64,000 nt of DNA from Candidatus Binatia bacterium (GTDB taxonomy: Bacteria; Desulfobacterota; Binatia; Bin18), in contig JAJDTY010000080.1 of assembly GCA_022826945.1 (NCBI GenBank), positions 34,005-98,004 on the forward strand, read 5' to 3'. The notes under the pieces were generated by a model that made no database searches, had not been told where the DNA came from, and saw nothing but the letters and a program-made list of their open reading frames with translations. The translations under genes and the position numbers were made by a program. How positions within the stretch are numbered: position 1 is the stretch's first letter; each line of letters opens with the position of its first letter. Positions 10,878 to 58,407 of this stretch are shown here, in pieces.

Positions 10878-11882
10878 TCAGCCCAAGCGCGGCTCGACCG
10901 CTTGGTGTAACGGCTGGAGGTCCGGTCGGCAGACGCCACAGGGCGCATAACCAATGGCTTCCGCTCGGGGACGTGAGGCGATGAATATACGATTCCCCGC
11001 CCGAGTACCCTTTGAAGCCTCACAGCTCGGTCGGCAAAATATCTGTTCCGTTTGCCGACCGACATAGAGCTGATCCTGGGCAATGGCAAAACCTGAGCGT
11101 GACGGAACAGTCGGTATGCCTTCAACCGTAAGAATATCCCGCTTGAGCGCGACTTTATTGCCGGCATAGCCGGTGAGGCTGCCATTACTGCCAACAATGC
11201 GGTGACAGGGAATCCGAATCGGCAGCGGATTGTAACGCAGGGCCTGCGCGACCGCCCGGACGGCTGTGGGCCGACCGATTCTCTCAGCCAGCCCTCCATA
11301 CGTTGTCAGGCTGCCATAAGGAATCTCACTCGCCGCCCGTAGGACCTGACGCTGAAAATCGCTCCGCATGAGGGCATCATCAATCACCCAATCAAGCGCT
11401 TGGCGCGAGCCGCTCAAGTATGCTTCAAGTTTCCAGGTCAGCGCCGCGATAGTGCCGCCATGACCTTGAGAGTGCTCAACCGCAAATTTTTCTCCGAACT
11501 CCTTTGCACTACCCCTGGGGTCGTCAGGAGAAACGAACTCAACCAGCGCCACTCCCTTATCCGTTGTGCCAATCCGCAGCGGCCCGATAGGTGAATCCCA
11601 GATGCTCAGGACGAGGCGCGGACGAGCGTCCGCAGTCAAGCGGGTCAACTGTCTGTCGAGTGCGCGTCGAGCTGAGGCGAGTCCGGTCTCCGGGGCGGGT
11701 AAAGAACCAAGCTGAAAGCGGATCTGTTTGTAGTGTTCCAAGAGCTGACCACAGTCGGGACAGGTGGTCAGGTGACGCTGGACTTTCTGCCGTATAAGCT
11801 GCGGATTTTCTCCGAGCGCTTCGGCGATAATATCGTCTTCCGCAAAGCCACATGCGAGCGTGTTACGCTTTTTGGTTGGCAT
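10878..11882 (-). CDS. Fusion protein: ZAS-type anti-sigma zinc finger + O6-alkylguanine-DNA alkyltransferase (Ogt) + Ada-type Cys4 methyl-acceptor zinc domain
   Basis: aa 37-44 'HLTTCPDC' (HxxxCxxC). aa 85-262 MGMT with 'IPCHRIVGSNGSLTGYAG' (Cys226 codon at 11205-11207). aa 283-318 'CRPSC...(27)...CGVCRP' fits the Ada_Zn_binding pattern. No TM helix. Overlaps the sigma gene by 20 nt. Confidence 0.8.
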   Translation of the reverse strand: MPTKKRNTLACGFAEDDIIAEALGENPQLIRQKVQRHLTTCPDCGQLLEHYKQIRFQLGSLPAPETGLASARRALDRQLTRLTADARPRLVLSIWDSPIGPLRIGTTDKGVALVEFVSPDDPRGSAKEFGEKFAVEHSQGHGGTIAALTWKLEAYLSGSRQALDWVIDDALMRSDFQRQVLRAASEIPYGSLTTYGGLAERIGRPTAVRAVAQALRYNPLPIRIPCHRIVGSNGSLTGYAGNKVALKRDILTVEGIPTVPSRSGFAIAQDQLYVGRQTEQIFCRPSCEASKGTRAGNRIFIASRPRAEAIGYAPCGVCRPDLQPLHQAVEPRLG

Positions 11883-12912: not shown

Positions 12913-13569
12913 ATGGCCACAGGAATAGACATTCAATGGGAACGGAAAGATGGAGTTTTGGTTGCAGCGATCATTGGGCGTGTCGACGGCGGCAACGCCG
13001 ATGAATTTCAGCGCCTCTTGGAAACCGGCATTGAGCCGGGCGACAATGCCTTGATCCTGGACCTTGAACAACTGGCCTTCATTAGCAGTGCAGGTCTGCG
13101 GGTCGGTCTGATTATTGCCAGGAAATTCAACGAGCCGGGTAAGCGGTTTGGCGTTTGTACGCTCCCCACTCATGTTCGTGGGGTGATCACCGTCAGCGGC
13201 TTTGACCAGATGATTGCCGTGTATGAATCACGGGCCGCCGCACTCAGCGCAATCGCAGGGAGTCCTAGCAGTGATGGCGACGACCAAGAGCCAAAAACAG
13301 AAGAAAAAATGGCAACCATGAGAGGCGTCGTCGATTATGACATCGTGGGGAGTAACGTACAGGAGATTGCCGATTTTACCATCGAGAAATATGAATTCCG
13401 AAACAACACGACCCTCTCCGCCGAGATACGTGAGGAAGGGATCGCCCAAATCAAGGATGTGTTGTGGAAGCGGATTGAGCTCTTGAGACAGCGGCGCGAG
13501 CAGCTTCGGAAATCCATGTTCGACGCAGCGGAAGAGGCGCTTGCTGAATTTGTCGATAAGAAGTCGTGA
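12913..13569 (+). CDS. STAS-domain protein (anti-sigma-antagonist fold) with ~105-aa C-terminal extension
   Basis: 'ILDLEQLAFISSAGLRVGLIIARKF...GVITVSGFDQMIAVYESRAAAL' is a STAS core. Start at the ATG at 12913 after GGGAAGGAG. The acidic linker and helical tail have no family I recognise. Confidence 0.75.
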   Translation: MATGIDIQWERKDGVLVAAIIGRVDGGNADEFQRLLETGIEPGDNALILDLEQLAFISSAGLRVGLIIARKFNEPGKRFGVCTLPTHVRGVITVSGFDQMIAVYESRAAALSAIAGSPSSDGDDQEPKTEEKMATMRGVVDYDIVGSNVQEIADFTIEKYEFRNNTTLSAEIREEGIAQIKDVLWKRIELLRQRREQLRKSMFDAAEEALAEFVDKKS

Positions 13570-13580
13570 GGACAGCCAAC

Positions 13581-16080
13581 ATGGCTGACCCGTCCGTTGC
13601 TGACAGAAGGGTTGCGCCGCTCGTGGGAGCGCTGCCGCCGCACTGTCAGCAGGATGTCAATACCCTACGGAGATTCATTCATGCGACCGTCAGCCAGGAG
13701 TCGCCGGCCGAAGCCGTCCCTCCGACTGCCTTTCAAGAGGTCTTGCTGACCGGGGCGACCGGATTTGTCGGTCGCTTTTTCCTGCGTGACCTGCTGCGGC
13801 AGAAGGGCGGCCTGGTGGTGCACTGCCTCGTCCGGGCCGAGACTGTCGAGCATGGGTTTGCGCGTGTGCGGGCCGCCCTGGAGCAGGCAGACCTTTGGGA
13901 TGAGGCATTCACACCGCGCATCCGCATAGTGGTCGGTGATATCGGTCAGGCTCGATTCGGCCTCAGCGAAGCGGAGTTCGACGACCTCTGTCAGCGGATC
14001 GATGCCATCTATCATCTTGCCGCCGATCTGGCCCTGGCTTCGTCCTATCTCGCCATACGTAAGATCAACACGCTCAGTATGCAGAGTGTGTTCGAGCTGT
14101 GTTTGCGCGTCCGCTATAAGTATGTGTTCTACGCTTCGTCTATGGGTGTCTTCCCCCAGTATTTTTGCAGCTTCGCCAATGAGTTCAGCCAGAGCCGCAT
14201 TGACCATCAGATGCAGCCGGACCTCACCAGCATGAAAAAGATGTTCCCCCTCGGAGTCCTCGGCTATCCGTGGAGCAAGCTGGTGGTTGAGCAGAGTTTG
14301 TTGTTCGCGCACATGGCCGGTCTGCCTATGGCGATTTTCCGGCTGCCGCAAACCAGTCTGTCCAGTACGGGATTTCCTCAGGTGGACAATATCTCCATGC
14401 GTCTCTTTTCGGCAATGGTCGATGTTGAAATGGTGCTACAGGGTGTATCACTTCAGAGATACAACGAGCCGGTCGATACGCTGAGTCAGATATGCACGGC
14501 CATTTCGCTCAACCCGCGGCGACGGTTCACGATCTACCACTGCTGCGACCCGCGGCCAGCTCGTTGCGACCTCGAATTCGCCGATTTCGGCAACTATTTT
14601 CGTGAGGTTCCCTACGGGGTGTTCAAGCAGGCATGTCAGGCCCGTGGCGAGAACTCACCGCTGCATGGATACTGGGCCTTGCTTGATCATTTTGCGCCCT
14701 ATTGGTTCAGCGACCGTAGGGCAAGCGCCACCCTGCCCATCTGCGACCGTACTCTGCGTGAAGATTGTCCGCGTCCAATCAAATGGCCGGGCCTGTTGAC
14801 CAAGTATGCACGTGCCAACGATTGGGTGCAGCGTCATCGGCAACAGTGGCCGTATGCTGTCCGGCACGGTCGTGTGGACGCTGACTGTCTGCTCGCCCGA
14901 GCCAAGCACTATGCCGAGCGTATGAGTGTGCCCTTTGAACGGGCCTATCCCGAGTGGATACACCGCAGCCTGCATCGCTTGGTACAGGCGCTGAATGCGC
15001 CAGAGGCTCGGCTGCTGGAGGCGAAGCGGAGTTCCGTCGCCTACGGTTTGAGCCATCTCTTGGAGATGAATGCTGCGCTCACTCGTGAACGGCAGCAGCT
15101 CCCGGAGATCGAACGCGAGGAGATTGCTCGACCGGTTTTCATTGTCGGCATCAACCGGACTGGTACGACCCTGCTGCACCGCCTGTTGGCTCGGGACAAG
15201 CGCTGCTGGACGCTGCGAAGCTACGAGTTGCTTGAGCCGGTCCTGCCGACGGGCGAGTCTGCCACGTTAGCCGGTACACCGGCTGACCCGCGCCGGGCCT
15301 ACCTCGAAGATATGCTTGCCGCCTCAAAAATGGAGGAAGTCTTCAAGGGCATCCACCACGTTGATATCGACGAGCCGGAGGAGGATATCCAGCTTTTGCG
15401 ATTATCCTTCTCGTCCTGGGCTTCTACGGTTCAATACTACGTGCCGGATTTCGGTCAGTGGCTGGCAGCGACCAGTTCCCGGGATGCCTATGCCCACCAC
15501 CGTCGCACTCTACAGCATTTTACCTATCAACGCCGGCAGCGCGAGTCGCAGGGCCAGTGGGTCTTGAAGATGCCTTTTCATCTCATGGAGTTGGAGACCG
15601 TGATTGAGACCTATCCGGACGCCCTGTTCATTCAGACCCATCGAGACCCCACGCGGTTCATGGGCTCCTGGAACAGCCTGGTGGAACGGGTGCGCTCTCT
15701 GTCCAGTGAACCGCCCGCGCCACGACCTCGGCGCCGAACAACTAGCCTTCATGAGCGACATGCTTGATCGGGCAGTGCGCTTTCGCAGGACCCATCCCGA
15801 ACTGGAACACCGCTGGGTCGATGTGAACTATGCCGATCTGGTCGAGGAGCCGCTGGCCGTTGTCCGCACCATCTATGAGCGGTTCAATTGGCCGCTTGAG
15901 CGGGCGGCCATCAACGCTATGGATGACTGGTTGTTCCGGCAGGAAGAACAGCGACAACAGGAGGAGCGGCATCGCTACACCCTTGAGAAGTATGGTCTCA
16001 CGCCGGAGGCGGTCAATACTGCCTTTGCTCAGTACCGGGACTTTATCGCCACCCATGGGATTCGAGGGTTTCGTCTCTGA
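13581..16080 (+). CDS. Thioester-reductase (NAD_binding_4) / sulfotransferase fusion, interrupted by a +1 frame change near 15700-15720 (ORFs 13581..15767 and 15718..16080)
   Basis: R domain: 'LLTGATGFVGRFFLRDLL' and catalytic 'GYPWSK' (YxxxK). ST domain: PAPS 5'-phosphosulfate loop 'INRTGTTLLHRLL', 'WVLKMPFH', 'THRDP'. The ST C-terminus (LGAEQLAFMSDMLDRA...WVDVNYADLVEEPLAVVRTIYERFNWPL...HRYTLEKYGL) continues in the +1 frame. Confidence 0.8.
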
Positions 16081-16156
16081 TGCGGAGTGACGCACTGGCA
16101 AGGGAATCCGTGCGTAGCGAAATGTGATGCCGGGTGTTCCAGCAAAAGGGGAAAAA

Positions 16157-19100
16157 ATGAATACAGCGCCGTCCGACGGTGCAGTTGCCATCGTCGGGTA
16201 CAGTTATCGCATGCCGGGAGGAATCCGGACCGACGACGACCTCTGGCGTTTGCTAAGCGAACGCGAGATCGTCCAGGAGCCCATCACCGACCGCTACGGC
16301 AGAGGCTATCAGCCGATCGGCGGATTCTCCGGTCCAGGTCGATTTGCCAGTCCCTACGAAGGGCTGATTCGCGAGGAAGGGGAGCAGCAGATCGATCGGA
16401 GTCTCTTCGGAGTCTCTCGTAATGAAATGATGTATCTGGACCCGCAGGTGAGAATGTTGTTGAACTGCGCCTGGGAGACCTGTGAGCGGGCCGGCTGGGG
16501 TTTACACTCGTTGCGCAATAGTCCGACGGGTGTCTTCATTGGCGCACAGACGCCGGCGGTGGCGAACTGGCGGGCAATGCACGGCGTCAATGAGTTTTCC
16601 ATTCTCAGCATCGATCCGTCCATGATGGCCAACCGCATCTCCTACCATCTTAACCTGATGGGGCCGTCGATAGCCTGTTGCACGGCGTGTTCCGCCGGCC
16701 TGAGCGCTTTGCACACGGCGATGAATGCGATACAGCGCGGCGACTGTCACCAGGCCCTCGTCGGATCGGCCCAGTACCTGGGATCAGCCAGACTCAGTAG
16801 CGGCTTCAATGCGCTGGGGATCGTCAGCCCGGATGGCAAGTGTCATTCCTTTGACGCGGAAGCGAATGGCTACGTGCGTTCGGAAGGAGCATTTATCTTC
16901 GCGCTGAAGCCCCTGGAGGTGGCGGAAAGAGACGGAGATCGCATCTACGCCGTGGTGGAGGCGACCGCAGTCAATACGGCCGGGGCAGCCGACGGCACCG
17001 ATGGTCTGGCACAGGGGCGCTATATTACCGCGCCGACCCGCCACGCCCAGGTTGAGTTGATGCGTACCGCCTACACCCGCGCCGGGCGTGGGCCAGGAGA
17101 CTTTGATTATATTGAAGCCCATGCGACCGGCACCGTGGTCGGTGATCGTATGGAAGGCAACGCCATCGCAGAGGCGTTCGGCGGTGTCGACCGCGCGGTT
17201 CCGCTCCGAGTTTCCAGCGTCAAGAGCAATGTCGGGCATATGGAGGCCGCGGCGTTCCACTGCTCTCTGCTCAAGGTCATCCTGATGATGCAGCAGCGCA
17301 CATTTGCGCCGACCTCGAAGAATTTCCTGGTGCCGAATCCGGAGATTGACTTCGACCGGGTTCCCATGCAGGTGCAGACGGCCTGTGAACCCTTTCCCGA
17401 ACGGCCGGTCGTGGTGGGTATCAATTCGTTCGGCTTTGGTGGGGCCAACGGGCACTGCGTGGTGCGGGAATACCGCCCGGCCCAACCCCGGGTCTGGTCG
17501 GTGGCCCTGGCCCCGGAGGCCGGTTTCATGATTCCCCTGTCAGCCCGTACATCCGACGCACTAACGCAGAGCGCCCGACAGTTACGGGAAACGCTCGACA
17601 ACCAGGCGATAGACCTGTATACGCTGGCCGGCAACCTCAGCCGCCGCCGTACCCACTTCGCTACGCGTACGGCCTTGGCGGTTCGCAGCCAGAAAGAACT
17701 TACCGAGGCGCTAGACGCCTTCACGGAAGAGCCTACACCGGTCGCTGCCGTGGAAGAAGGCGAGAAGCGGCTGGCCATGGTATTCTCCGGTCAGGGGACG
17801 CAGTGGGCCGGTTGCGGTCGCGGGCTGTACGACACGGACCCTGTATTCCGCCGCGTGATCGATGCCATTGAGGGACACTGGCGGGAGCACTCGGACATCT
17901 CGCTGCGCGAGGCCTGTTTCTCGGCCAGCCAGGAAGAACTGAACGAAGTGCAACTGGCGCAGCCCGTCATTTTCATGTTGCAGTGCGCGCTGGTGGAGCT
18001 GTTCAAGACCTGGGGCGTGTATGCGGACTGCGTGGTTGGCCACAGTTCCGGCGAGGTCGCCGCAGCGTACGCCTGCGGAGCGCTTTCGCTGGCAGAAGCC
18101 ACGCGCCTGGTCTTCCATCGCGCCACCTTGCAACAGCGAACGGCCGGTTCCGGTCGTATGCTGGCGATCGGCCTCGACCGACCCGGTGTGGAGGACATAC
18201 TTGAAACGCTCCGCATTCCCTTCAGCACCGAGAATGGTCAGCCGACCCAGGTTGAGATCGCCTGCGAGAACGCACCGGCCAGTACCGTCATCTGCGGCAA
18301 GGAGGCTGCCTTGCAGCCCGTCATGGCGGAATTGGATGGGCGCAAGCTGCAACATCGGCTGCTTCCGGGTAATATTGCCTTCCATTCCAGTGCCATGGAC
18401 CCGCTCGAAGACGACGCCCTGGAGGCCCTGTCCTTTTTGAACGGCTGCGCCTTTGACGCCGATGTGCCATTCGTTTCTTCGGTCACCGGTGTGAAAACAG
18501 AGTGCCTGGACAACGCCTATTGGTGGTCAAATATCCGCCAGCCGGTACGGTTCGCGGCGGCCGTGGAAACCGTCAAGCGGGAGTATCAGGCTGACGTGAT
18601 ACTGGAAATCGCGCCGCATAGCGCCCTGCAACCCACTATTGCCCAGTGTCTGGAAGACGGCGTTCCGGTGCCGGCCTGCATTCCGACGCTCATGAGAGAT
18701 ACGGATGTCTGCCTCGGCTTTCACGAGGCTCTGGGTGCCCTTTTCCGGGCCGGCGTAGACCTGGATTTTGCGGCCCAGTATCCGCGCCCGGAGCCCATCG
18801 CCCATCTCCTGCCCGGCCATCCGCGAGAAGAGCGGGCGACAAAGGATGTCATGGCCGACAACGAGTTTCTTGTTCAACAGGGGGAGTACTCCCACGGCCC
18901 GCTGGTCGGGCACAAGGTTCCTTCTGACCACCTGCTCTTCGAAGCGCGGCTTTCGGAGAGGGACTTTCCCTGGTTGGCAGAGCACCGCGTCCATCATGCG
19001 TCGATCATTCCGGCAGCCGGCTATATTGAGTTGATCCTGCAGGCTCTTGAGGGCGTACCGGTCTATTGCGAAGAGATTGAATTCCTCCAGCCCTGTCCCA

Positions 19101-22100
19101 TCCCCAAAGCTCCGGTACGGCTGCAAACGGCCTTGTATCCGGTCGCTGGTGCCCCGGACGAGTTTACCTTCACCATTTCTTCCCGGTCGTACGACATCGA
19201 AAAGGAAAGTACGTTGCATTGCCGTGGCCAGGTGCGTCGGGTGAGTGAAGAACACACGGTGGACGTCCCAAGGCAACTGTCGGATATCGACACGACCGGC
19301 TTTGAGACCGCACCCTTTACGAAAGACGGCGAATTTTACGAGCACGTGGAGGGAATCCTCGGAGACGCCTTCCAATATGGTCCTTTTTTTCGGACCATCC
19401 AAAAGATCGATAAGGATAGGAAGTCCGAGCATCTTTTGGTTGACGTGGAGGTTGATGAGGAACTGTGGGCAACCGGCCGAGCGGAGGGGTATGTCTTGCT
19501 GCCGTCCTTAATCGACGGCGGGCTGCAGATCTTCCTGTACCATCTGATGCGTATCCCTGATCTTTTCTCCATGCCACAGCGAGCCCGGCACGTAACGTTT
19601 GTTCGTCCGCCGACAACGCAACGGATCACCTGTTATGTAGCAAAACCCGCCAATGAGTTGTTCGATATGATTGAAAAGGGGCAATATGCCGTTCATACCG
19701 GCGAGAGGTCCGGTGGCAGCATCAGTTTCTACGATAGCGCGACGGGATCTCTCATCGCCTATATCGAAGAATATCGCTCCTTCAACACCAATCCGAGATG
19801 GATCGACCTGCCGCACAGCAAACATATTGTCTCCTGGCAGCCCAGGTTCGTCCCCGACGCTCGGCCACTTGTGGACAGATTGCCAGACGGAGAGATCGAG
19901 CCGACCGCTTTGATTGCTGCTCTTGAGCAGTTCGACTGCGACGACCGCCATGCCTGCAATGCCGTTGAGTTCGCTGCCGGTCGAGAGCCCGACCAGACCA
20001 TCCTCAAACAATGTCTTGAGCATCTCTCGGGTACAGATAGCCAGACCGAATTCTGGCTCGTCGGTGACAGTGAAGAAGGGACTCAGGCGCACTACGATGC
20101 CTTCAATCAAAATGATGCCACCCTGCGTTTCGAGCGCCTTGATCTGTCCGCCCAGCCAGCGCCGGAACTGAATGCCGGCCTGCTGCGTCCGGGTGTCGCC
20201 GATATCCTGTTCCTGCATGGGGAGGCCGTTGCGTTCGGACTGGAGGACTGGCGATTCTGGCGCCGGTTGGCGGTCGCTGGTGGTCTGGCGCTAGTCTGCC
20301 ACGACGAGGGCGAGGTGATCACACCAGGCGACGGATGGACCATCGTCCGTGCTGGACAGCGTACGACCCTGCTGCAAGCGCCGCAGTCCTATGCTCTTGA
20401 CGCAACGGACAGGCCAGGACCGCGCTGGGTGCTGGGTGAGTCGGAGAGTTGGGCTGCGGACTGGGTGTCTCTGCTCAATGCGCCCGAGGTGTCCCCGATT
20501 TCCTATGACTCCCTTCGGAGCGGTGATTTCCATGCGCTCGAGGAATGGTCGCAAGTGGCCGATGTGCAAGCGATTGACTTCTTCTGTGGGACAGACCCGC
20601 AGGACCCGACAGGGGAAAAGGTGGTATCGCGCTGCGTCGCCTTTATCCAGGCATTGGTCTCCTCCAGAATCGAGCAGGCGAACGACAGGTGCCGCTTGAC
20701 CGTGATCACACGCCGGGCGGCCTACGATGTGGAAGAGCCACGCGGACATGCGCTGTGGGGAGTGGTACGCAGTATGGCCGCCGAAGTCGATGAGGAGGCC
20801 AAGCTCGACTTCCGCCTAGTGGACTTGGGTGCCTCCGACGACTTGGAGACCTTGGCTTGGCTGGGTCGGTGCGATGTGCGGGAGCGTGAACTGGCGGTAC
20901 GGCAGCAACGCGTGTGGGCTCCGCGGTTGGTCAGTATTCGGAAGCGATTTCCTCACGTTTCTGCCGGTGAGGAGCCTGCCTACCGACTCTGCTTGGACAA
21001 TCCGGGACAGGTCGGCGGTTTGCAGATGAAGACGTACGAACCCGCGGCACTGGGAGCGCGAGACGTGGAGATCGAAGTGGCGGCGGCCGCGCTTAACTTC
21101 CGGGACGTCATGGTCACGCTGGGGTTGTTGCCGGCCCTGTCATACGAACGCTCTGCGCTTGGGCGTGAAGTCGGCATCGAGGCCAGCGGTGTCGTTCGCC
21201 GTGTCGGCTCGGCGGTGCGCTGGCACTCCGTCGGTGACGCAGTGGCATTCACCAAGGGGGGGTGTATTGCCAATCGTGTGGTGGTTGACGAGCATCTCGT
21301 TTTTGCCAAGCCCGCCCGCTTGAGTATGGAGGAGGCTGCCTCGTCGTTATCGGCCTACGTGACCGCCTACTATGCCCTGAGACATCTAGCGCGCCTCGGG
21401 AAGGGCCAACGGGTGCTGATCCACTCGGCTATGGGCGGAGTCGGCCAGGCTGCCATTGCCCTAGCCAAACATGTCGGAGCGGAAATCTACGCCACTGCGG
21501 GCAGCGAGAGCAAGCGAGCGCAATTGTTGGCGCTGGGCGTCCGTGCGGCCTTCGATTCTCACAGCTACGATTGGTACGACGACGTCATGGTGGCGACCGG
21601 AGGCGAGGGCGTTGACATCGTGTTGAATTCCCTGGCCGGTCGCCATATTGCCCTGTGTCTGGAGGCCTTACGGCCGGGTGGCTGGCACTGCGAGATTGGC
21701 AAGGTCGATATCTACGCCGACAATGCACTCAGCCTGCGTGTCTTTCGCAAGAACCTGCGCTTTGTGGCGATTGACGTTGATCGTCTCATGATGGACGACC
21801 CGGCCCTCTCGCACCAACTCTCTCGGGCCTGCCTGGACCTGCTTGACCGAGGCGCGGTACCGCCATTGCCGGTCACGGTCTTTCCGTACAAGGACTATGA
21901 TAAGGCCCTGCGTTTGATGATCAACGGCCAACACCAGGGAAAATTGGTCCTGACGGCCCCGCCGGCGTCTGTCGGTCCTGACTTCCCGATTGCCGACCGA
22001 CGGCCATTTCTCGATCCCGATGCGACCTACCTTGTGACCGGCGGCCTGGGTGGTCTCGGCCTGCGCTTTTTGCCCTATCTGGTCGCTTCGGGGGCACGCC

Positions 22101-23227
22101 ATCTCACCTTGATGGACCGCGATCCCGAGCGCCGTCGGAGCGTTGATTGGGTCCGTCAGTCGAGTACTCTGGCCGACATGGATGAAGAGGTCGAGATCGG
22201 CATTGTTGCGGGTGATGTGGCGGAAGAGGCCGATGTCCAGCGCTGTATCGCTCAACTGCACCGGCCGCTCAAGGGTGTGTTCCACCTCGCCGGTGTGCTG
22301 GATGACCGTTATCTGGCCGACATGTCGCCCGAATCCCTGACAAGGGTATTCGCGTCCAAGGCCTATGGCGCTCTCCATCTTCACCGGGCGACAGCTGGCT
22401 GCCCACTTGAGCATTTTGTTCTGTTCTCCTCTATGGCCTCGACCTTTGGCAACCCCGGACAAATCAATTACAGCGCCGCCAATGCTTTCTTAGACGGGTT
22501 GGCTGCCTATCGCCGTCGGCAGAGCCTGCCGGGTTTGGCTTACAACCTCGCTGCCGTTACGGAAGTCGGCATGGCCGCGCGGAATGCCCAGTTGTTGCGC
22601 ATGATGAGGACTGCCGGCCTGCCTCCGGTCAGCAGCGATTTTGCCATTACCAACCTCGATTACGCCATGCGGACGATGTCTGACCGGGACCATTTGGTCA
22701 CCGCCCTGTTCAAGCGTCCGCCGTGGACGGTTGACTCTCTGGACTATATGCGGAGTGGCCGTTTGCTGACCAATCAGGACGCCTTCCGAGTGAATGCAGA
22801 CGGCCAACTGACACTTGACAGCGTGGTGGCGCAGATCGCCGACAAGGTCGCCGAACTCTGCGGTCATGACGAGGGTGGTGTGGAGGAACCATTGTCCAGT
22901 TTTGGGCTCACGTCGATCTCGGTCGCCGAGTTGGGGACGTTCATCCTGACGCAATTCAACTACCAGGTCAGCGCGCTCGAACTGATGACTACGGCCTCCG
23001 CGCTGTCGTTGGCTCACGATATCATCTACGGCAAGAAGGACGCTGAAGAAGGTCAGACCGAGACGGAGACGGACGGGCCTGAGGAGGCGTCTCTCGTTGT
23101 ACAACCGCGCGTCCGCCGCGTGCCGTCGGCTTTCGCCAGCGCGATTGAAGACCACTTTCCGCAGGGGAACGGCGTGCCCCATGGGAGCGGCGTGGAACCG
23201 AGTCCTTTCGCCATCCACTCACCCTGA
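16157..23227 (+). CDS. Single-module, fully reducing type I polyketide synthase (KS-AT-DH-psiMT/psiKR-ER-KR-ACP), MAS/FAS-like, probably iterative
   Basis: All catalytic motifs are found (see the domain features). Start at the ATG at 16157 (MNTAPSDGAVAIVGYSYRMPGG). No TE or R domain in cis. Confidence 0.95.
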   Translation: MNTAPSDGAVAIVGYSYRMPGGIRTDDDLWRLLSEREIVQEPITDRYGRGYQPIGGFSGPGRFASPYEGLIREEGEQQIDRSLFGVSRNEMMYLDPQVRMLLNCAWETCERAGWGLHSLRNSPTGVFIGAQTPAVANWRAMHGVNEFSILSIDPSMMANRISYHLNLMGPSIACCTACSAGLSALHTAMNAIQRGDCHQALVGSAQYLGSARLSSGFNALGIVSPDGKCHSFDAEANGYVRSEGAFIFALKPLEVAERDGDRIYAVVEATAVNTAGAADGTDGLAQGRYITAPTRHAQVELMRTAYTRAGRGPGDFDYIEAHATGTVVGDRMEGNAIAEAFGGVDRAVPLRVSSVKSNVGHMEAAAFHCSLLKVILMMQQRTFAPTSKNFLVPNPEIDFDRVPMQVQTACEPFPERPVVVGINSFGFGGANGHCVVREYRPAQPRVWSVALAPEAGFMIPLSARTSDALTQSARQLRETLDNQAIDLYTLAGNLSRRRTHFATRTALAVRSQKELTEALDAFTEEPTPVAAVEEGEKRLAMVFSGQGTQWAGCGRGLYDTDPVFRRVIDAIEGHWREHSDISLREACFSASQEELNEVQLAQPVIFMLQCALVELFKTWGVYADCVVGHSSGEVAAAYACGALSLAEATRLVFHRATLQQRTAGSGRMLAIGLDRPGVEDILETLRIPFSTENGQPTQVEIACENAPASTVICGKEAALQPVMAELDGRKLQHRLLPGNIAFHSSAMDPLEDDALEALSFLNGCAFDADVPFVSSVTGVKTECLDNAYWWSNIRQPVRFAAAVETVKREYQADVILEIAPHSALQPTIAQCLEDGVPVPACIPTLMRDTDVCLGFHEALGALFRAGVDLDFAAQYPRPEPIAHLLPGHPREERATKDVMADNEFLVQQGEYSHGPLVGHKVPSDHLLFEARLSERDFPWLAEHRVHHASIIPAAGYIELILQALEGVPVYCEEIEFLQPCPIPKAPVRLQTALYPVAGAPDEFTFTISSRSYDIEKESTLHCRGQVRRVSEEHTVDVPRQLSDIDTTGFETAPFTKDGEFYEHVEGILGDAFQYGPFFRTIQKIDKDRKSEHLLVDVEVDEELWATGRAEGYVLLPSLIDGGLQIFLYHLMRIPDLFSMPQRARHVTFVRPPTTQRITCYVAKPANELFDMIEKGQYAVHTGERSGGSISFYDSATGSLIAYIEEYRSFNTNPRWIDLPHSKHIVSWQPRFVPDARPLVDRLPDGEIEPTALIAALEQFDCDDRHACNAVEFAAGREPDQTILKQCLEHLSGTDSQTEFWLVGDSEEGTQAHYDAFNQNDATLRFERLDLSAQPAPELNAGLLRPGVADILFLHGEAVAFGLEDWRFWRRLAVAGGLALVCHDEGEVITPGDGWTIVRAGQRTTLLQAPQSYALDATDRPGPRWVLGESESWAADWVSLLNAPEVSPISYDSLRSGDFHALEEWSQVADVQAIDFFCGTDPQDPTGEKVVSRCVAFIQALVSSRIEQANDRCRLTVITRRAAYDVEEPRGHALWGVVRSMAAEVDEEAKLDFRLVDLGASDDLETLAWLGRCDVRERELAVRQQRVWAPRLVSIRKRFPHVSAGEEPAYRLCLDNPGQVGGLQMKTYEPAALGARDVEIEVAAAALNFRDVMVTLGLLPALSYERSALGREVGIEASGVVRRVGSAVRWHSVGDAVAFTKGGCIANRVVVDEHLVFAKPARLSMEEAASSLSAYVTAYYALRHLARLGKGQRVLIHSAMGGVGQAAIALAKHVGAEIYATAGSESKRAQLLALGVRAAFDSHSYDWYDDVMVATGGEGVDIVLNSLAGRHIALCLEALRPGGWHCEIGKVDIYADNALSLRVFRKNLRFVAIDVDRLMMDDPALSHQLSRACLDLLDRGAVPPLPVTVFPYKDYDKALRLMINGQHQGKLVLTAPPASVGPDFPIADRRPFLDPDATYLVTGGLGGLGLRFLPYLVASGARHLTLMDRDPERRRSVDWVRQSSTLADMDEEVEIGIVAGDVAEEADVQRCIAQLHRPLKGVFHLAGVLDDRYLADMSPESLTRVFASKAYGALHLHRATAGCPLEHFVLFSSMASTFGNPGQINYSAANAFLDGLAAYRRRQSLPGLAYNLAAVTEVGMAARNAQLLRMMRTAGLPPVSSDFAITNLDYAMRTMSDRDHLVTALFKRPPWTVDSLDYMRSGRLLTNQDAFRVNADGQLTLDSVVAQIADKVAELCGHDEGGVEEPLSSFGLTSISVAELGTFILTQFNYQVSALELMTTASALSLAHDIIYGKKDAEEGQTETETDGPEEASLVVQPRVRRVPSAFASAIEDHFPQGNGVPHGSGVEPSPFAIHSP
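16184..17467 (+). other. PKS ketosynthase domain
   Basis: 'ACCTACSAGL' (Cys codon at 16688-16690), 'EAHATGT', 'SNVGHMEAAA'. Confidence 0.9.
17768..18673 (+). other. PKS acyltransferase domain (malonyl-type signature)
   Basis: 'VFSGQGTQW', 'GHSSGEVAAAYA', and 'IAFHS' (xAFH rather than YASH). Confidence 0.85.
18866..19768 (+). other. PKS dehydratase domain
   Basis: 'LAEHRVHHASIIPAAGYIE' (catalytic His) and 'LIDGGLQ' (DxxxQ). Confidence 0.8.
19886..20953 (+). other. Structural psi-methyltransferase / psi-KR interdomain region
   Basis: ~355 aa between DH and ER. 'NAVEFAAGREPDQT' sits where a SAM-binding 'VLEIGAGTG' would be, so the motif is degenerate. Confidence 0.5.
20975..21958 (+). other. 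PKS enoylreductase domain
   Basis: 'VEIEVAAAALNFRDVM', 'LIHSAMGGVGQAAIALAKHVGAEIYATAGS'. Confidence 0.85.
22019..22573 (+). other. PKS ketoreductase catalytic domain
   Basis: 'TYLVTGGLGGLGLRF', 'FSSMASTFGNPGQINYSAANAFLD'. Confidence 0.85.
22805..23038 (+). other. PKS acyl carrier protein domain
   Basis: 'LSSFGLTSISVAEL'. The phosphopantetheine Ser codon is at 22913-22915, and the motif reads TSI rather than DSL. A ~60-aa acidic/Pro-rich tail follows. Confidence 0.75.
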
Positions 23228-23252: not shown

Positions 23253-24992
23253 ATGCCGAATGCACTTTTGGTGTATCCCGAAAACCCCCCTGCCTACTGG
23301 GGGGCGAAATATGCTCTGGAGATGCTTGGTATAAAGGCAGCCTTTCCCCCCTTAGGTCTGCTCACCATCGCCGCGATGTTTCCACCGGAATACGACCTCC
23401 GCGTCGTGGATATGAATGTGTCTCCCCTGGAGGACTCGGACCTGGAATGGGCGGATATGGTGTTTACCTCCACCATGATCGTTCAGCGAGTCTCTCTGCA
23501 AACCATCATTGAGCGATGCAACCGGGCCGGGGTTCTCGTGGTGGCCGGGGGGCCTCATCCCACCACATATCATGATGAGATCACAGGCGTGGATCATTTC
23601 GTGCTGGATGAGGCAGAGGAGATCTTTCCCGGATTTCTGCGCGACCTGGAAAACGGCATGGCCAAAGCCATGTATCGCGAGCCGCGCAAGCCGGATGTGA
23701 CGCAGACCCCCATTCCACGCTTCGACCTCATCGATATGGAGCACTATTACTCCATGAGCGTGCAGTTCTCGCGCGGGTGTCCGTTCGACTGTGAGTTCTG
23801 CGACATTACCAAGCTCTACGGGCGGGTGCCCAGGACCAAGTCGCCAGAGCAAATGGTGAACGAGTTCGAAGCCCTGTATGGACTGGGCTGGCGAGGTCCT
23901 TTGCTTCTGGTTGACGACAACTTCATTGGCAACAAGCGAGATGCCTTGAAACTCCTGCCGGAGATCGCCGAGTGGCAAAAGGCCCGTGGATATCCCTTCT
24001 CCCTCTTCACGGAAGCGACGGTGAATCTGGCCCGCATGGATGAACTGATGGACCTCATGGTCGAGGCGGGTTTCAATTCCGTATTTTTGGGCATTGAAAC
24101 GCCCAATCCCAAGGCATTGCTCAAGACGAAGAAACCACAAAACGTCAACAAGCAGGAAGAGCATTTCCTTTTGAATGCTGTTCGTAAAATCCAGCACAAA
24201 GGGATGCAGGTCCAAGGAGGATTCATCCTAGGTCTGGATGAAGATGACGAGGGCGTGTTTGACGCCCAGATCGATTTTATTCAGGCTGCCGGCATTCCCA
24301 TGGCCCCGATCTATATGTTGGCTGCTCTGAAGAATACGAATCTATATAATCGCCTGAAGTCGGAGAACCGGCTTTTGGACGTACCCATTGAAATTGACGC
24401 CACAGCCCTCAACTTCAAGCCGGAGCTGAATCCCAAGACGTTGATCGAGGGATATCGACGCGTGACCACCACCATTTACGACCCAACGCTTGAGCATTAC
24501 TTCAAGCGCTGCCTGACGTTATTTGAGCACCTCGCGCCCGTCCCGCACCTGCAAAAGCCGAGGAGTAAGAACACTCTTTTTTTGGCTCTGATGAGCGTAC
24601 GCCGCCGGCTTTCCTCCAGGCAACTTCCGGCCTACAACAAGTTCATTGCCAAGGTCTCCAAGGACCATCCCCGTATGCTCCCGGAGGCGATCAGTCTGGC
24701 CGCTATGGGCTACCACTTTGAAAAGGTCACCCGTCAGCAGATTGCGATCCGCGAGTTCAAGGAGTTTTTGACGGCCGAATTGAAGGGGTTCAAGGAAGCG
24801 GCCTCGCATCAGTCACGGGAAGTGGAAAAAATCCAGAAACAGCAGCAGGAGTTGCTCGCGCGAGTCCAGGCGCGCTACAAATCGATACCTGACGATTTTC
24901 GATACCAGGGAGATGGAATCGAGCCGACTCTGGAGGCCTTCCGAAGCGCGGTGAATACACAGGCAGACCACCTCACTCACGCGGCGGTATAA
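23253..24992 (+). CDS. B12-binding-domain radical SAM protein (class B, DUF4070-type C-terminus)
   Basis: N-terminal cobalamin-binding Rossmann region (LGLLTIAAMFPPEYDLRVVDMN...VVAGGPHPT). Radical SAM cluster 'SRGCPFDCEFCDI' (CxxxCxxC). AAGGAGAGGAG RBS. Confidence 0.85.
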   Translation: MPNALLVYPENPPAYWGAKYALEMLGIKAAFPPLGLLTIAAMFPPEYDLRVVDMNVSPLEDSDLEWADMVFTSTMIVQRVSLQTIIERCNRAGVLVVAGGPHPTTYHDEITGVDHFVLDEAEEIFPGFLRDLENGMAKAMYREPRKPDVTQTPIPRFDLIDMEHYYSMSVQFSRGCPFDCEFCDITKLYGRVPRTKSPEQMVNEFEALYGLGWRGPLLLVDDNFIGNKRDALKLLPEIAEWQKARGYPFSLFTEATVNLARMDELMDLMVEAGFNSVFLGIETPNPKALLKTKKPQNVNKQEEHFLLNAVRKIQHKGMQVQGGFILGLDEDDEGVFDAQIDFIQAAGIPMAPIYMLAALKNTNLYNRLKSENRLLDVPIEIDATALNFKPELNPKTLIEGYRRVTTTIYDPTLEHYFKRCLTLFEHLAPVPHLQKPRSKNTLFLALMSVRRRLSSRQLPAYNKFIAKVSKDHPRMLPEAISLAAMGYHFEKVTRQQIAIREFKEFLTAELKGFKEAASHQSREVEKIQKQQQELLARVQARYKSIPDDFRYQGDGIEPTLEAFRSAVNTQADHLTHAAV

Positions 24993-25095: not shown

Positions 25096-25857
25096 ATGGA
25101 TCGGGAATCGGATTGTGAGGCCGCAGGGAGTGAGGCGGGTATGTCCTCAACGGATGAATGTTGGTGGCGTCCGTTCAGGAAAACCGACAGGGCTGCTGTC
25201 TATCATGTTGATCTGACACCTCATGCGGCCCGCGAGCGAGCCGCCGTGGCCTGGCTCGACAAGCAAGAACATGTGCGTTGGCAGCGCTACCCGTATGCGC
25301 GTCCTCGGCGCGAGTTTGCCCTGTGCCGCGCAGCGCTCCGTGCCCTGCTGTGTGGTCGGCTCGATTGTCGCAATGATGAATTAGCCTTTGGTGCCTCGCA
25401 GTATGGAAAGCCGTTTGCCTTTGTGAGTGGGACGCCGGTGCCCATCAGCTTTAATATCAGTCACAGCGGCGCGCACGGATTGATCGCGTTTGCAGCAGCC
25501 GGCCGTATCGGGGTGGATGTGGAGGAGCGGGTCACTCGTCGCGATCTTGACGGAATAAGCCAGACGGTCTTTACGCCGGGCGAACGCGCGGCGCTGGCCG
25601 CGACGAGTGGAGAGCGGAAGGTCCACCTGTTCTTCAGTCTGTGGACGCTGAAGGAAGCGCTGATTAAGGCGCTCGGTCCGGGCTTTTCTTTGGACCCGTC
25701 CCGATTCGAGATTCCAGCGGCCATGTGTCGCGGCCTGCCTACCAGCGTCTTTCGGTTCCCTCACCTCCCCGCGGCCAGTTGGCGGCTCGAAAATCTGGAC
25801 AACACCGCTTTTGCCGCCGCCATCGCCCATGAACTGGGACTCGGTCCCACAGAGTAA
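25096..25857 (+). CDS. Sfp-type 4'-phosphopantetheinyl transferase
   Basis: 'FNISHSG', 'GVDVEE', 'FSLWTLKEALIKALG'. The start is uncertain (25096 or 25141). Confidence 0.85.
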   Translation: MDRESDCEAAGSEAGMSSTDECWWRPFRKTDRAAVYHVDLTPHAARERAAVAWLDKQEHVRWQRYPYARPRREFALCRAALRALLCGRLDCRNDELAFGASQYGKPFAFVSGTPVPISFNISHSGAHGLIAFAAAGRIGVDVEERVTRRDLDGISQTVFTPGERAALAATSGERKVHLFFSLWTLKEALIKALGPGFSLDPSRFEIPAAMCRGLPTSVFRFPHLPAASWRLENLDNTAFAAAIAHELGLGPTE

Positions 25858-54648: not shown

Positions 54649-56280
54649 ATGCAGCGTTTGTGGCCCATTCCGCTCGCCGGTGTAAGCGGTGTTCTGCTTG
54701 CCCTGGCCTTTCCGAAAGTCGATTGGAATATTCTGGCCTGGGTTGCTTTTATCCCGCTACTCTGGATGACGCAGGGGCAGACGCTACGCCGTGCTTTCAG
54801 CCTTGGCTGGATTGCCGGTATGGGGTTTTATCTCTGTACGCTGTATTGGGTCGTCGATACGATAGGCCTGTACAGCAATATTCCTCATATTATTGCCGTC
54901 GGTCCGTTGCTCCTGATGTGTGCCATTTTATCAGCATACACCGGAGTCTTTGCTGTCGGCCTGTGTGTCTATCACAAGAGCCGGCCGCACAACAGCGGTT
55001 GGTCACTCCTCGTATTCGGACCCATGCTCTGGGTCGCCCTGGAATGGGTTCGCTCGTTCTTTTTTATTGGATTTCCCTGGGTCAGTCTGGGCTATTCACA
55101 ATACAACTTCGTAAACCTGATTCAGTTTGTCGAATACACTGGTGTCTACGGGCTGTCGGCGCTGGTGATCTTTGGCAATGCTGTTCTCTTTCTCGTTTTT
55201 TCCCGTCAGGGCCGTGGGCGCTTGGTGCTGGTTCTACTCCTGGTGATCGCGGGATTGTGGGGCTGGGGAAACTGGCGTCGCAGTCAGTTGGCTGCGCTAC
55301 CCACGACCCATACGCTGCACGTTGGGATCGCCCAGGGGAATATCGCTCAGGATCAAAAATGGGATCCTGATTACCAAGAAGTCACCATCGCCCGCTATGA
55401 GCAACTCACGCGTCAGATCACGGAACAAGCAACCGACCTGGTTATTTGGCCGGAGGCAGCAGTGCCATTTTTCTTTCAGTCCGAGGTGACCTACCGTGGC
55501 CGGCTGCTAGACTTGGCCCAAGACACCAACACGCCCATCCTGTTTGGGAGCCCTGCCTTTCGAGTCGATGATACGGAACTCACGCTGTTCAACCGGGCCT
55601 ATCTCCTGTCTCCGGACACGACGATTCTGGGGCATTATGACAAGATGATCCTTACCCCCTTTGGCGAATACATCCCCTTTCAAGACAGTGTACTCTTCTT
55701 TCTGGATAAATGGGTGGAAGGGATAGGCGACTTTGCGCCAGGGACGACGCCGACCGTTTTTTCTCTTCCCCTAAAGAGTCGACCTGTCCTCCACCCGGAT
55801 GACAAAGCTGGACACGTTGATGCCTTTGAGACTTTTGGCGTACTCGTCTGCTATGAGGGTGTGTTCCCTGACCTTGCGCGTCGCTTCGTTCATAATGGTG
55901 CGCGGCTGCTGATCAATGTGACCAATGATGCCTGGTTTGGAGAGACTTCGGCTCCCTATCAACATCTGGCCATGGAGGCCATGCGGGCCGTCGAGAATCG
56001 AGTGCCCCTGGTGCGGTCCGCAAATACCGGGATCTCAGCCATCGTGCATATTGATGGACAGATTCAGGCCCAAACCGCGCTCCTGGAGACCACCTTTATT
56101 GCCGACCAGCTTGCCTGGCCTCACGTGACCTCCTTCTATACCCAGTACGGTGATTGGTTTGTGACGTTGTGCGTCGTCGGGACGCTCGTTATGCTAGGCT
56201 ACATAGGGATAATTGTATTATTCGTTAAGCGAAACGGAGGAGGCGGAGATGCTGGCAGAAATCAGAGAAAAATTACATGA
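54649..56280 (+). CDS. lnt: Apolipoprotein N-acyltransferase
   Basis: Multi-TM N-terminus. CN-hydrolase domain with 'VLVCYEGVFPD' (catalytic Cys) and 'NDAWFG'. Confidence 0.9.
   Translation: MQRLWPIPLAGVSGVLLALAFPKVDWNILAWVAFIPLLWMTQGQTLRRAFSLGWIAGMGFYLCTLYWVVDTIGLYSNIPHIIAVGPLLLMCAILSAYTGVFAVGLCVYHKSRPHNSGWSLLVFGPMLWVALEWVRSFFFIGFPWVSLGYSQYNFVNLIQFVEYTGVYGLSALVIFGNAVLFLVFSRQGRGRLVLVLLLVIAGLWGWGNWRRSQLAALPTTHTLHVGIAQGNIAQDQKWDPDYQEVTIARYEQLTRQITEQATDLVIWPEAAVPFFFQSEVTYRGRLLDLAQDTNTPILFGSPAFRVDDTELTLFNRAYLLSPDTTILGHYDKMILTPFGEYIPFQDSVLFFLDKWVEGIGDFAPGTTPTVFSLPLKSRPVLHPDDKAGHVDAFETFGVLVCYEGVFPDLARRFVHNGARLLINVTNDAWFGETSAPYQHLAMEAMRAVENRVPLVRSANTGISAIVHIDGQIQAQTALLETTFIADQLAWPHVTSFYTQYGDWFVTLCVVGTLVMLGYIGIIVLFVKRNGGGGDAGRNQRKIT
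55773..55828 (+). repeat. Palindromic element copy W, in frame inside lnt
   Basis: aaagagtcgacctgtcctccacccggatgacaaagctggacacgttgatgcctttg, encoding LKSRPVLHPDDKAGHVDAFE just upstream of the catalytic CYE motif. Confidence 0.75.
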
Positions 56281-57353
56281 GTTGAGCGCACGCATTGAGA
56301 GTCTTGGGAGGCATCTTTGACATCCCGGATAAGGAAGCCCGTGCCGCCGCACTGGAAGAACAAACGCTGGCCGACGGATTTTGGCAAGATCAGGAGAAGG
56401 CGCAAGCCATCCTCAAGGAGCGAGCAAGCTTACTCGACACGGTAACGGAGTGGAAAAAGCAGACCCAGACCGTATCTGACGCGCTGCTCTTTCTGGAACT
56501 GGCCGAAGCCGGAGACGCCGAGGCGGTTGAAGAAGTCGAACGGACGGTGCCCGAGCTTGAAACGATCGTGAGTCGGGCAGAGTTGCAGTGGATGCTGGGC
56601 GGAGAACACGATGGGCAGAGTGCCATCGTCAGTCTCCACCCCGGCGCCGGTGGTCTCGAAGCCCAGGACTGGGCCGATATGCTCCTCCGACTCTATCTGC
56701 GCTGGGCGGAACGCCGCAGCTATAGCGTAGAGATGGCTGAACACCTGCTTGGTGAAGGCGGGGGGGTAAAAAGTGCGACCTTTACCGTTGAGGGGGCCTA
56801 CGCTTACGGCTATCTGCGGGCGGAGGCGGGCATTCATCGGCTCGTTCGAATTTCGCCGTTTGATGCCAATGCCCGGCGGCATACCTCCTTTGCCTCTGTT
56901 TTTGTTTATCCGGATATTGATGAAGCTGTCGAAGTTGATATCCGTCCTGAAGATTTGCGCGTTGATACCTACCGGGCCAGTGGGGCTGGGGGACAGCACG
57001 TCAACAAAACCGACTCCGCGATCCGTCTGACCCACATCCCGAGTGGGATCGTGGTGGCGTGTCAGAATGAACGGTCCCAACATCGGAATCGAACCATGGC
57101 GATGAAAATTCTCCGTGCCCGTTTATACGAGCTGGAGATGGAAAAACAAAAGGAGAAGATGGAGGGCCTACATAAAAGCAAAAAGGATATTGCCTGGGGA
57201 AGTCAGATTCGCTCGTATGTCCTTCATCCCTACCGGATGGTCAAAGACCATCGCACCAACGTGGAGGTCGGGGATACAGACGCGGTCCTGGATGGCGATA
57301 TCGATCAGTTTATCGAAGCCTATCTGCTCCAACAGTCGACGGCAGCCGAGTAA
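56249..57353 (+). CDS. prfB: Peptide chain release factor 2, join(56249..56317,56319..57353) via programmed +1 frameshift
   Basis: Frame 0: MLAEIREKLHELSARIESLGRHL-TGA. The +1 frame continues DIPDKEARAAALEE...; 'SGAGGQHVNKTDSA' (GGQ) and the 'SPF' motif are present. Confidence 0.95.
56306..56320 (+). other. prfB recoding site: SD-like GGGAGG, 3-nt spacer, CTT TGA C
   Basis: gggaggcatctttgac. The in-frame TGA is at 56318-56320, and the +1 reading resumes at GAC at 56319. Confidence 0.9.
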
Positions 57354-57489: not shown

Positions 57490-58407
57490 ATGAACGCGTT
57501 GACGATTGAACGAATTCCGGAACTAAACGACCCTGTCCTGATTGTCGCCTTTGCCGGCTGGAACGATGCCGGTAGCGCGGCGACGCATGCCACGCAGTTC
57601 CTCATCAAGCGCCTCCAGGCACAGCGTTTCGCGACGATCGACCCTGAAGAATTTTATAATTTCAGTGAGGTTCGGCCCCACGTGCGCCTGCGAGACGGGC
57701 TCTACCGCGAGATTCGCTGGCCGGCCAATGAATTCTTTGCGACGAGCGCAGAGCAGCTCAAGCGCAGCATGGTCCTGGGTCAGGGCATTGAACCGCATCT
57801 CCGCTGGAAGGCGTATTCAGCGGCCTGTCTGGATGTTGCCAAGCAGTGTGGGGTGCGCCTCGTGATTACCCTCGGGGCGCTCTTGGCCGATGTGGCCTAT
57901 TCCAGGCCGGTACGCGTGGTTGGATTTAGCAGCGACCCCGATATTGCGACGCAACTCCAACTCACCCAGTCCCGTTACGAGGGGCCAACGGGCATCGTGG
58001 GGGTGCTGAATGATGCCTGCCGTCAGGCTGGATTGACGTCCATCAGTTTCTGGGCCAACGTACCGCACTATATTTCCGCTTCTCCAAACCCCAAGGCAGC
58101 CCTGGCTCTCGTCAGCCGTCTTGAGTCCTTTCTCCAATTCGCCCTGGATACCACCGAGCTGGTGACAGGCGCGGCGGAGTTTGACGCACAGGTCGCCAAG
58201 GCGATTACCGAAAACCCCAACCTGGCCGCCTACGTCAAACGCTTGGAAGAACAGGAGCAGGAAGAGGGGCTGGAAACGGAGCCCGCTGCGCAGGACAAAG
58301 CCGGCAACGGACACGGCAACGGCAATGGGCATGCCAACGGCAAGGATATGGCTGAAGAACTTCAGCGTTTCTTGCAGCAGCGTAAGGATCGTAAAGATGA
58401 CGAGTGA
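57490..58407 (+). CDS. PAC2 (proteasome assembly chaperone 2-like) family protein
   Basis: 'PVLIVAFAGWNDAGSAATHA' is the family N-terminal signature. Confidence 0.7.
   Translation: MNALTIERIPELNDPVLIVAFAGWNDAGSAATHATQFLIKRLQAQRFATIDPEEFYNFSEVRPHVRLRDGLYREIRWPANEFFATSAEQLKRSMVLGQGIEPHLRWKAYSAACLDVAKQCGVRLVITLGALLADVAYSRPVRVVGFSSDPDIATQLQLTQSRYEGPTGIVGVLNDACRQAGLTSISFWANVPHYISASPNPKAALALVSRLESFLQFALDTTELVTGAAEFDAQVAKAITENPNLAAYVKRLEEQEQEEGLETEPAAQDKAGNGHGNGNGHANGKDMAEELQRFLQQRKDRKDDE

Follow-up and report, generated by a model that had tools for sequence, protein, structure and literature searches.

The closest described relatives of the gene discussed here belong to the "sponge symbiont widespread FAS" (fatty acid synthase; swf) cluster, which was reported from sponge metagenomes and a poribacterial genome (JX946307, JX946308 and Poribacteria POR_0550). 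It comprises swfA, a type I polyketide synthase (PKS)/FAS with ketosynthase, acyltransferase, dehydratase, enoylreductase, ketoreductase and acyl carrier protein domains (KS-AT-DH-ER-KR-ACP); swfB, a protein of 832-839 aa with "R + ST domains", that is, a thioester reductase (R) and a sulfotransferase (ST); and swfC, a radical S-adenosylmethionine (SAM) gene that is optional among the published examples (Della Sala et al. 2013, PMC3908369). The same study set out the hallmarks of SwfA (DPQ[I/V]R for DPQQR, HATGT for HGTGT, GHSSGE, IAFH, QCALVEL and FSGQGTQW), recorded that R-ST pairs end coccidian type I FAS, listed an anti-anti-sigma (STAS) open reading frame (ORF) upstream in fosmid pPS11G3 without counting it as an swf gene, and already proposed that R and ST together turn a terminal carboxylate into a primary sulfate (PMC3908369). 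Later papers report swf-like clusters in Nitrospirota, Latescibacterota, Acidobacteriota and "Tectomicrobia", and those of 2022-2023 still call the function unknown. Here we describe the counterpart of swfB in a 64,000-nt stretch (hereafter the window) of a Candidatus Binatia bacterium genome (assembly GCA_022826945.1, contig JAJDTY010000080.1, positions 34,005 to 98,004 of the forward strand), where it spans positions 13581-16080 and is interrupted by a frameshift.

The swfB gene and its cluster

We hold with good confidence that the gene at these positions is swfB, responsible in the swf cluster for chain release and tailoring by a proposed course of reductive release followed by sulfation, and that it is frameshifted in the copy at hand. 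The assignment was made against the published description, by domains, size, partners, SwfA motifs and habitat. As it stands in the window, the gene consists of two reading frames and the lesion that separates them:

13581..15767, + strand: first reading frame of swfB, coding for all of the thioester reductase (aa 1 to ~430) and for the N-terminal two thirds of the sulfotransferase domain
15711..15712, + strand: site of a 2-nt (CG) deletion inside an imperfect CCGCGC tandem repeat, shifting the frame by -2 (+1)
15715..16080, + strand: displaced 3' part of swfB in the +1 frame, coding for the last third of the sulfotransferase fold and closed by the stop codon at 16078-16080

Homologues begin at the position of ATG 13581 (MADPS...), although the first ORF itself opens at GTG 13566, and they end at the position of the stop codon 16078-16080. 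A preliminary description of this DNA had presented 13581-16080 as one reductase fused to a sulfotransferase; the two domains are borne out by Pfam and by motifs, whereas the single continuous ORF was obtained by reading through the 2-nt deletion. All five motifs that it quoted lie where it placed them, at aa 58 (GATGFVGR), 229 (YPWSK), 524 (INRTGTTLL), 660 (WVLKMPFH) and 686 (THRDP), counted from ATG 13581. In the Pfam search the N-terminal half is a thioester reductase (NAD_binding_4, E 2.8e-44, first-ORF residues 61-290, nt 13746-14435) and the C-terminal half a sulfotransferase (Sulfotransfer_3, E 7.9e-25, first-ORF residues 523-711, nt 15132-15698, profile positions 1-151 of 216), both calls being far above chance level. 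Profile positions 159-215 of Sulfotransfer_3 are encoded in a second ORF at 15604-16080, in the +1 frame (E 1.8e-6), and an intact relative, P0001, matches profile positions 1-215 in one frame. P0001, a protein of 833 aa that is 98% identical to that of the window, is encoded on contig L081 and is the first sequence of the 73-homologue alignment. NCBIfam holds no model specific to the R-ST protein; its generic R-domain models match, all under their cut-offs.

The residues expected of both enzymes are present. Aligned to the terminal reductase of MxaA, the reductase half shows the TGATGFVG Rossmann motif (TGxxGxxG), the CLVR arginine and the Ser/Thr-Tyr-Lys set (S/T187-Y229-K233), together with an R-domain fold that includes its C-terminal subdomain. 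Aligned to the sulfotransferase Stf1, the other half shows the GINRTGTT loop that binds the 5'-phosphosulfate, at aa 521-528 of the window protein (G523-T530 in P0001 numbering), and the 3'-phosphate-binding QTHR...S motif (R688/S696, P0001 numbering), while the complete Stf-type fold is not found in one frame. The NADPH, catalytic and 3'-phosphoadenosine 5'-phosphosulfate (PAPS) motif residues are invariant across the 73 homologues. Codon 286 (14436-14438), within the reductase domain, encodes leucine in the window, against a proline that is invariant in the 73 homologues, the 98%-identical strain included; this P286L substitution could point to a relaxation of constraint on the window allele.

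The presence of a thioester-reductase/sulfotransferase didomain beside a type I PKS, as the preliminary description had it, is upheld:

12913..13569, + strand: STAS (anti-sigma-factor-antagonist-like) gene (Pfam STAS, E 3.4e-13; NCBIfam TIGR00377); longest ORF from GTG 12883
16124..23227, + strand: swfA, an intact iterative-type single-module PKS/FAS with the domains KS-AT-DH-ER-KR-ACP (Pfam)
23253..24992, + strand: swfC, a B12-binding radical SAM protein with a DUF4070 C-terminal domain (Pfam B12-binding, Radical_SAM, DUF4070)
25096..25857, + strand: Sfp-type 4'-phosphopantetheinyl transferase (PPTase; Pfam ACPS, AASDHPPT_N)

Counted from GTG 16124, with an ATG following at 16157, the product of swfA has 2367 aa, and it carries every published signature: FSGQGTQW at aa 554, QCALVEL at 620, GHSSGE at 639, IAFH at 751, DPQVR at 106 and HATGT at 333, with neither DPQQR nor HGTGT present in the window SwfA. 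It is 97% identical to the copy on L081. SwfC probably starts at ATG 23253, its longest ORF opening at TTG 23097, and its CxxxCxxC motif reads CPFDCEFC. The window shares with the published swf cluster the domains of SwfB in the same order, its size (833 aa after repair, within the published 832-839 aa), the SwfA and SwfC partners, adjacency to a SwfA with the expected domain order and six motifs, the sponge metagenome habitat and the upstream STAS gene. It differs in gene order, which is STAS-swfB-swfA-swfC here and swfA-swfB-swfC or swfA-swfC-swfB in the published examples, in the PPTase that follows the cluster, and in the -2 frameshift within the ST domain. The one published feature that fails, an uninterrupted reading frame, bears on the function of the window copy and not on its homology. 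The architecture itself, which had been taken to be unusual, turned out on database and literature searches to be common and already named SwfB (PMC3908369), so that the window adds no new kind of enzyme.

Across 81 related loci, swfA adjoins swfB in 75, a swfC homologue is present in 59 and a STAS homologue in 38, and most of the loci that lack an expected partner are short contigs. The genomic tie of swfB to swfA, which in some relatives is a covalent one, is regarded as obligatory. The order STAS, swfB, swfA, swfC, PPTase in the window is shared by L081 as far as swfC, and in both the STAS gene stops 11 nt upstream of swfB. The PPTase is the unusual member, a homologue lying within 10 kb in only one of the 81 loci; it plausibly activates the ACP of SwfA, a domain that the AcpS of E. 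coli does not activate (PMC3908369). Neither SwfB nor the neighbouring genes contain a thioesterase (TE) domain in Pfam. The window also holds recA, alaS, prfB, lnt and other housekeeping genes, and its location is therefore chromosomal. Among named relatives, the RecA closest to that of the window (82-84%) comes from MAGs of Candidatus Binatia or "Deltaproteobacteria", which points tentatively to the taxon, and RecA relatives at 95-99% belong to genomes of ~5 Mb.

Some further observations concern these genes and their surroundings. The STAS protein has its STAS domain at aa 17-120, followed by a C-terminal extension of ~100 aa without Pfam match; such proteins elsewhere are either short (~90-120 aa) or long (~210-230 aa), and are encoded just upstream of swfA or convergently after swfB; they may serve in regulation or in the binding of ACP, lipid or anions. 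In sponge metagenome runs, contig depth spikes 5- to 25-fold at 15570-15700, 17170-18480, 21540-21976 and 23725-24161; these spikes in swfB, swfA and swfC fit nucleotide-level conservation among many co-resident symbiont taxa with swf clusters of their own. Upstream, an Ada-like protein (10878-11882, - strand) has its domains in an unusual order, the O6-methylguanine-DNA methyltransferase DNA-binding domain (aa 174-255) preceding the Ada zinc-binding domain (aa 267-320).

Two folds and the supposed linker

Between the two catalytic cores the preliminary description had placed a linker of ~180 aa. An AlphaFold2 model was built on the intact relative, not on the frameshifted copy, with the 73-sequence alignment as input. 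The model is confident throughout (mean predicted local distance difference test score, pLDDT, 90.6; predicted template modelling score, pTM, 0.87), and residues 346-520 are predicted as ordered helices with pLDDT 87-97; residues ~346-520 are moreover conserved as strongly as the catalytic cores. In Foldseek comparisons the N-terminal half resembles the whole MxaA R domain (4u7w; target template modelling score, TMt, 0.80-0.82 over ~420 columns), and the C-terminal half resembles the whole of Stf1 (2zq5, TMt 0.85) and of Stf9 (2z6v, TMt 0.81), over ~390-420 columns. The predicted structure thus has two complete folds covering essentially all of the 833 residues, and what had been called a linker is, in the model, the C-terminal subdomain of the reductase together with the N-terminal helices of a Stf-type sulfotransferase. 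Conservation, pLDDT and fold coverage together rule out a long flexible interdomain linker. The two folds are predicted to pack rigidly into one compact unit, as the pTM indicates.

Sequence searches against solved structures agree. Residues 43-346 match the MxaA terminal reductase (4u7w, E 7e-38), and residues 505-817 match Stf1 (2zq5, E 4e-36) and Stf9 (2z6v, E 4e-28), with GxxRTGTT and QTHR...S in alignment. Because the Stf1 alignment crosses the frameshift site and continues to aa 817, the displaced C-terminal piece is integral to the fold. No solved structure spanning both the R and the ST half was found, and in a phmmer search of the PDB at E<=10 the ST half had no sequence relatives beyond Stf1 and Stf9.

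The MxaA terminal reductase, from the myxalamid PKS-nonribosomal peptide synthetase (4u7w/4w4t), is its best match in both sequence and structure and has TGxxGxxG, CLVR and S/T-Y-K in common with it, but is the last domain of an assembly line, has no sulfotransferase attached and is only ~26% identical to SwfB. The likeness of the ST half to Stf1 of M. tuberculosis and Stf9 of M. avium includes the N-terminal helical extension, although both are stand-alone proteins of ~385-415 aa, neither fused to a reductase nor linked to a PKS. The ST-TE module of CurM and the olefin synthases likewise places a PAPS-dependent sulfotransferase in PKS/fatty-acyl product release; there, however, the ST, paired with a TE, adds sulfate to a beta-hydroxyl of the chain while this is attached to the ACP, and that sulfate is lost in a decarboxylative elimination, whereas SwfB lacks a TE and has its ST after a reductase. 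Kinship with the CurM/olefin-synthase ST was dismissed, since no such PDB match appears even at E<=10 and the order of ST followed by TE is not found.

The frameshift in the window copy

The span 13581-16080 measures 2500 nt, which is not divisible by 3, and no single ORF covers it; the frame from 13581 runs into a premature TGA at 15765-15767. In a DNA alignment with L081, a CG is missing after 15711, changing CCGCGCCCGCGCC to CCGCCCGCGCC. This is the sole difference at the junction, where the P0001 protein reads ...SLSSEP-R-PRHDLGAEQ... in the protein alignment, and once the CG is put back the two swfB genes align without other gaps. Joined, the two frames encode a protein that is collinear with over 100 homologues, which are ~835 aa long, and restoring the CG gives an 833-aa SwfB. 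Over the gene as a whole, 48 of 2502 nt differ from L081, affecting 31 codons synonymously and 15 non-synonymously; downstream of the deletion site, just 2 of the 369 nt differ.

The deletion is, we think, most probably a real and recent mutation, private to one population. The deleted form is found in Logan contigs of run X1, a sponge metagenome that contains 100% of the region's 31-mers, at a word depth of 27 and with no alternative contig. The CG after 15711 is present in contigs of five other runs (X2, X3, X4, X5 and X11), so the site is not generally miscalled. It could be argued instead that the gene is intact in the organism, encoding a normal 833-aa SwfB, and that the CG was lost through an error in sequencing or assembly. 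The setting of the deletion in a GC-rich imperfect CCGCGC tandem repeat would favour such an error, as would the near-identity of the downstream frame to L081 and the intact state of the remaining swf genes and of the sampled neighbours. Two further points tell against the deletion: its support comes from assembled contigs, which drop rare variants, and there is a residual chance of a systematic read error in the GC-rich short repeat. Given the independent contigs of run X1, the reading of the CG in five other runs, and the mutation in the window copy of a second, otherwise invariant position (P286L), we judge an error unlikely, if still worth bearing in mind. General sloppiness of the assembly was rejected as the cause, as ~35 neighbouring ORFs scanned with Pfam include no other split genes; an apparent overlap at 57490-59851 is two separate genes.

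A third account would make the frameshift functional, either as programmed recoding or through two pieces translated separately and reassembling into an active sulfotransferase. An ATG in the +1 frame at 15760 overlaps the premature stop (ATGCTTGA), and termination-reinitiation would be possible in principle. The site has no slippery sequence, the best 120 of 771 homologues and the 98%-identical strain are all in frame, and a fragment starting at 15760 would lack the residues between 712 and 727, splitting a helix of the model in mid-fold. Programmed frameshifting was accordingly set aside, and we regard this account as extremely improbable. Just one further change of frame was noticed in the window, in prfB (56250-57353, + strand), at 56315-56321, where CTT TGA C follows the Shine-Dalgarno-like GGGAGG and the main ORF, with PCRF and RF-1 domains, begins just past the site. 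The programmed +1 frameshift of prfB is a canonical phenomenon.

To return to swfB as a gene with a genuine deletion, the consequence for the protein can be read from what is displaced. The 3' part carries the family-invariant residues R736, W746, D748, Y751, R792, H798 and Y800, as judged from the 73 homologues, and a sulfotransferase without its last ~120 residues, these seven positions included, should have lost its activity. The window copy is thus most likely a reductase with a dead, truncated sulfotransferase, or else a very recent pseudogene.

Distribution, fusions and proposed release chemistry

Regardless of the state of this allele, the intact didomain is widespread. Homologues of ~835 aa number in the hundreds, in sponge-symbiont metagenome-assembled genomes (MAGs) of more than ten phyla, and the best 120 of the 771 scored are 826-852 aa long, contain both domains and are 61-98% identical; where named, these carry the label "SDR family oxidoreductase" (short-chain dehydrogenase/reductase, SDR). 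GTDB representatives with the gene, again MAGs, include Nitrospirales, Latescibacterota, several acidobacterial orders, Gemmatimonadota, Alpha- and Gammaproteobacteria, Binatia, Opitutales, Spirochaetia, Anaerolineales, Tectimicrobiota and others, a breadth of lineages that implies extensive horizontal transfer. Most other runs that hold words of the region are sponge metagenomes. Near-identical swfB and swfA words and contigs also occur in the coral-labelled runs X8, X14 and X25, one of which is a metatranscriptome, and the swf cluster may also exist outside sponges. Metatranscriptome contigs 95-99% similar to swfB and swfA, lying outside the frameshift site, suggest that related copies of the cluster are transcribed.

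A profile-free scan of 1.8 billion cluster representatives for the whole R-ST didomain found it in two settings, as stand-alone proteins of ~770-920 aa or at the C-terminus of megasynthases. P0122 is a single chain of 3179 aa with the order KS-AT-DH-ER-KR-ACP-R-ST, a natural fusion of SwfA and SwfB, and P0125 is another of about 3180 aa; eukaryotic examples are found in Chromera velia (6729 aa), Gregarina sp. (5971 aa) and Rhytidocystis pertsovi (4485 aa). In these PKS/FAS-fused proteins the whole R-ST unit of ~820 residues aligns from end to end, at 31-50% identity. The bacterial fusions and the chromerid, gregarine and coccidian synthases carry the didomain in cis after the last ACP, whereas SwfB of the window is free-standing and would act in trans. 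That the didomain off-loads the chain from the ACP of SwfA has strong support of the "Rosetta-stone" kind in the fusions, and the natural ACP-R-ST order points, indirectly, to reduction of a carrier-protein thioester by SwfB. The preliminary description had also held that ST domains in PKS systems are normally paired with TE. That view has to be relaxed, because the R-ST didomain ends many PKS megasynthases and ST domains are therefore not paired only with TE.

A pathway can be proposed for the intact enzyme, whose substrates and product we infer from its relatives and partners. SwfA would iteratively assemble a largely saturated acyl chain on its own ACP, and SwfC may C-methylate that chain. 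The SDR-type thioester reductase of SwfB would then release the chain with NADPH, probably in a four-electron reduction to the primary alcohol. Barajas et al. in 2015 reportedly found that MxaA R releases a primary alcohol through two successive NADPH reductions, and the four-electron release is proposed for SwfB because MxaA-R is its closest solved relative. The tightly packed Stf1/Stf9-type domain would finally move sulfate from PAPS onto the alcohol. The product of the intact enzyme would be a primary, possibly methyl-branched, alkyl sulfate, a proposal that we favour, if by a narrow measure of confidence.

Several points weigh against this reading of SwfB, and they concern its chemistry above all. 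In literature searches no biochemically characterised R-ST enzyme was found, in line with the remark in the preliminary description that none was known to its author. In the only heterologous expression on record, with the entire swf cluster placed in E. coli, no new metabolite appeared; what could be demonstrated was phosphopantetheinylation of the ACP, and no more (Della Sala et al. 2013, PMC3908369). No alkyl sulfates are known as widespread sponge metabolites from our literature search. The TIGR01746 thioester-reductase model of NCBIfam scores 185.8 bits against a curated cut-off of 213.35, over model positions 2-270 of 371. Finally, sequence cannot separate a two-electron reductase, yielding an aldehyde, from a four-electron one, yielding an alcohol.

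This last point leaves some room for the view that the reductase stops at the aldehyde, or is non-redox, and that the ST acts on an unrelated substrate, the fusion serving co-regulation. Two-electron and non-redox R domains are both known (PMC3908369), and sequence alone does not tell the types of R domain apart. At the same time, the full set of NADPH and catalytic motifs is invariant, the alcohol-forming MxaA R is the nearest match in both sequence and structure, the predicted packing of the two folds is rigid (pTM 0.87), and bacteria and alveolate megasynthases alike retain the didomain as a single unit. We therefore find a fusion for co-regulation very unlikely.

A sulfate ester that is only an intermediate, or that sits elsewhere than on C-1, has somewhat more in its favour. 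Here another hydroxyl of the chain would be sulfated, or the alkyl sulfate would be a transient electrophile for alkyl transfer, ether formation or elimination, possibly with SwfC. Sulfation as activation has a precedent in the ST-TE modules of curacin and olefin synthases (PMC3908369), the lack of known widespread sponge alkyl sulfates would be accounted for, the reducing domains of SwfA may be used optionally, and the best NCBIfam matches of SwfC are all far under their cut-offs. Against it, the ST is not CurM-like in sequence, its PDB matches at E<=10 being those to Stf1 and Stf9; the 81 loci show neither a TE nor a conserved alkyl-acceptor enzyme accompanying the cluster; and SwfC is absent from about a quarter of these, several being truncated contigs. 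We consider these alternatives, taken together, rather unlikely.

A broader idea is more doubtful still, and we offer it as speculation: R-ST could be a general release module of bacteria and eukaryotes, in which the C-1 alkyl sulfate is an activated electrophile and the sulfate leaves in alkyl transfer, ether formation or elimination. If true, this would be a logic of release through an electrophile, unlike hydrolysis by a TE and unlike the beta-sulfate elimination of the CurM type, and the ST-truncated strain of the window would be a ready-made ST-null comparator.

Two PKS/FAS clusters recur in many sponge microbiomes, and swf, one of the two, is spread over many bacterial phyla; SwfB is a worthwhile target for biochemistry. 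To the published picture the window adds a clean record of swfB frameshifted in one natural population and intact in sister populations, and a supposed linker that proves to be structured and to belong to two folds. It also adds a variant of the cluster that brings along a PPTase as well as the conserved STAS partner, both of which could help heterologous expression where it failed before.

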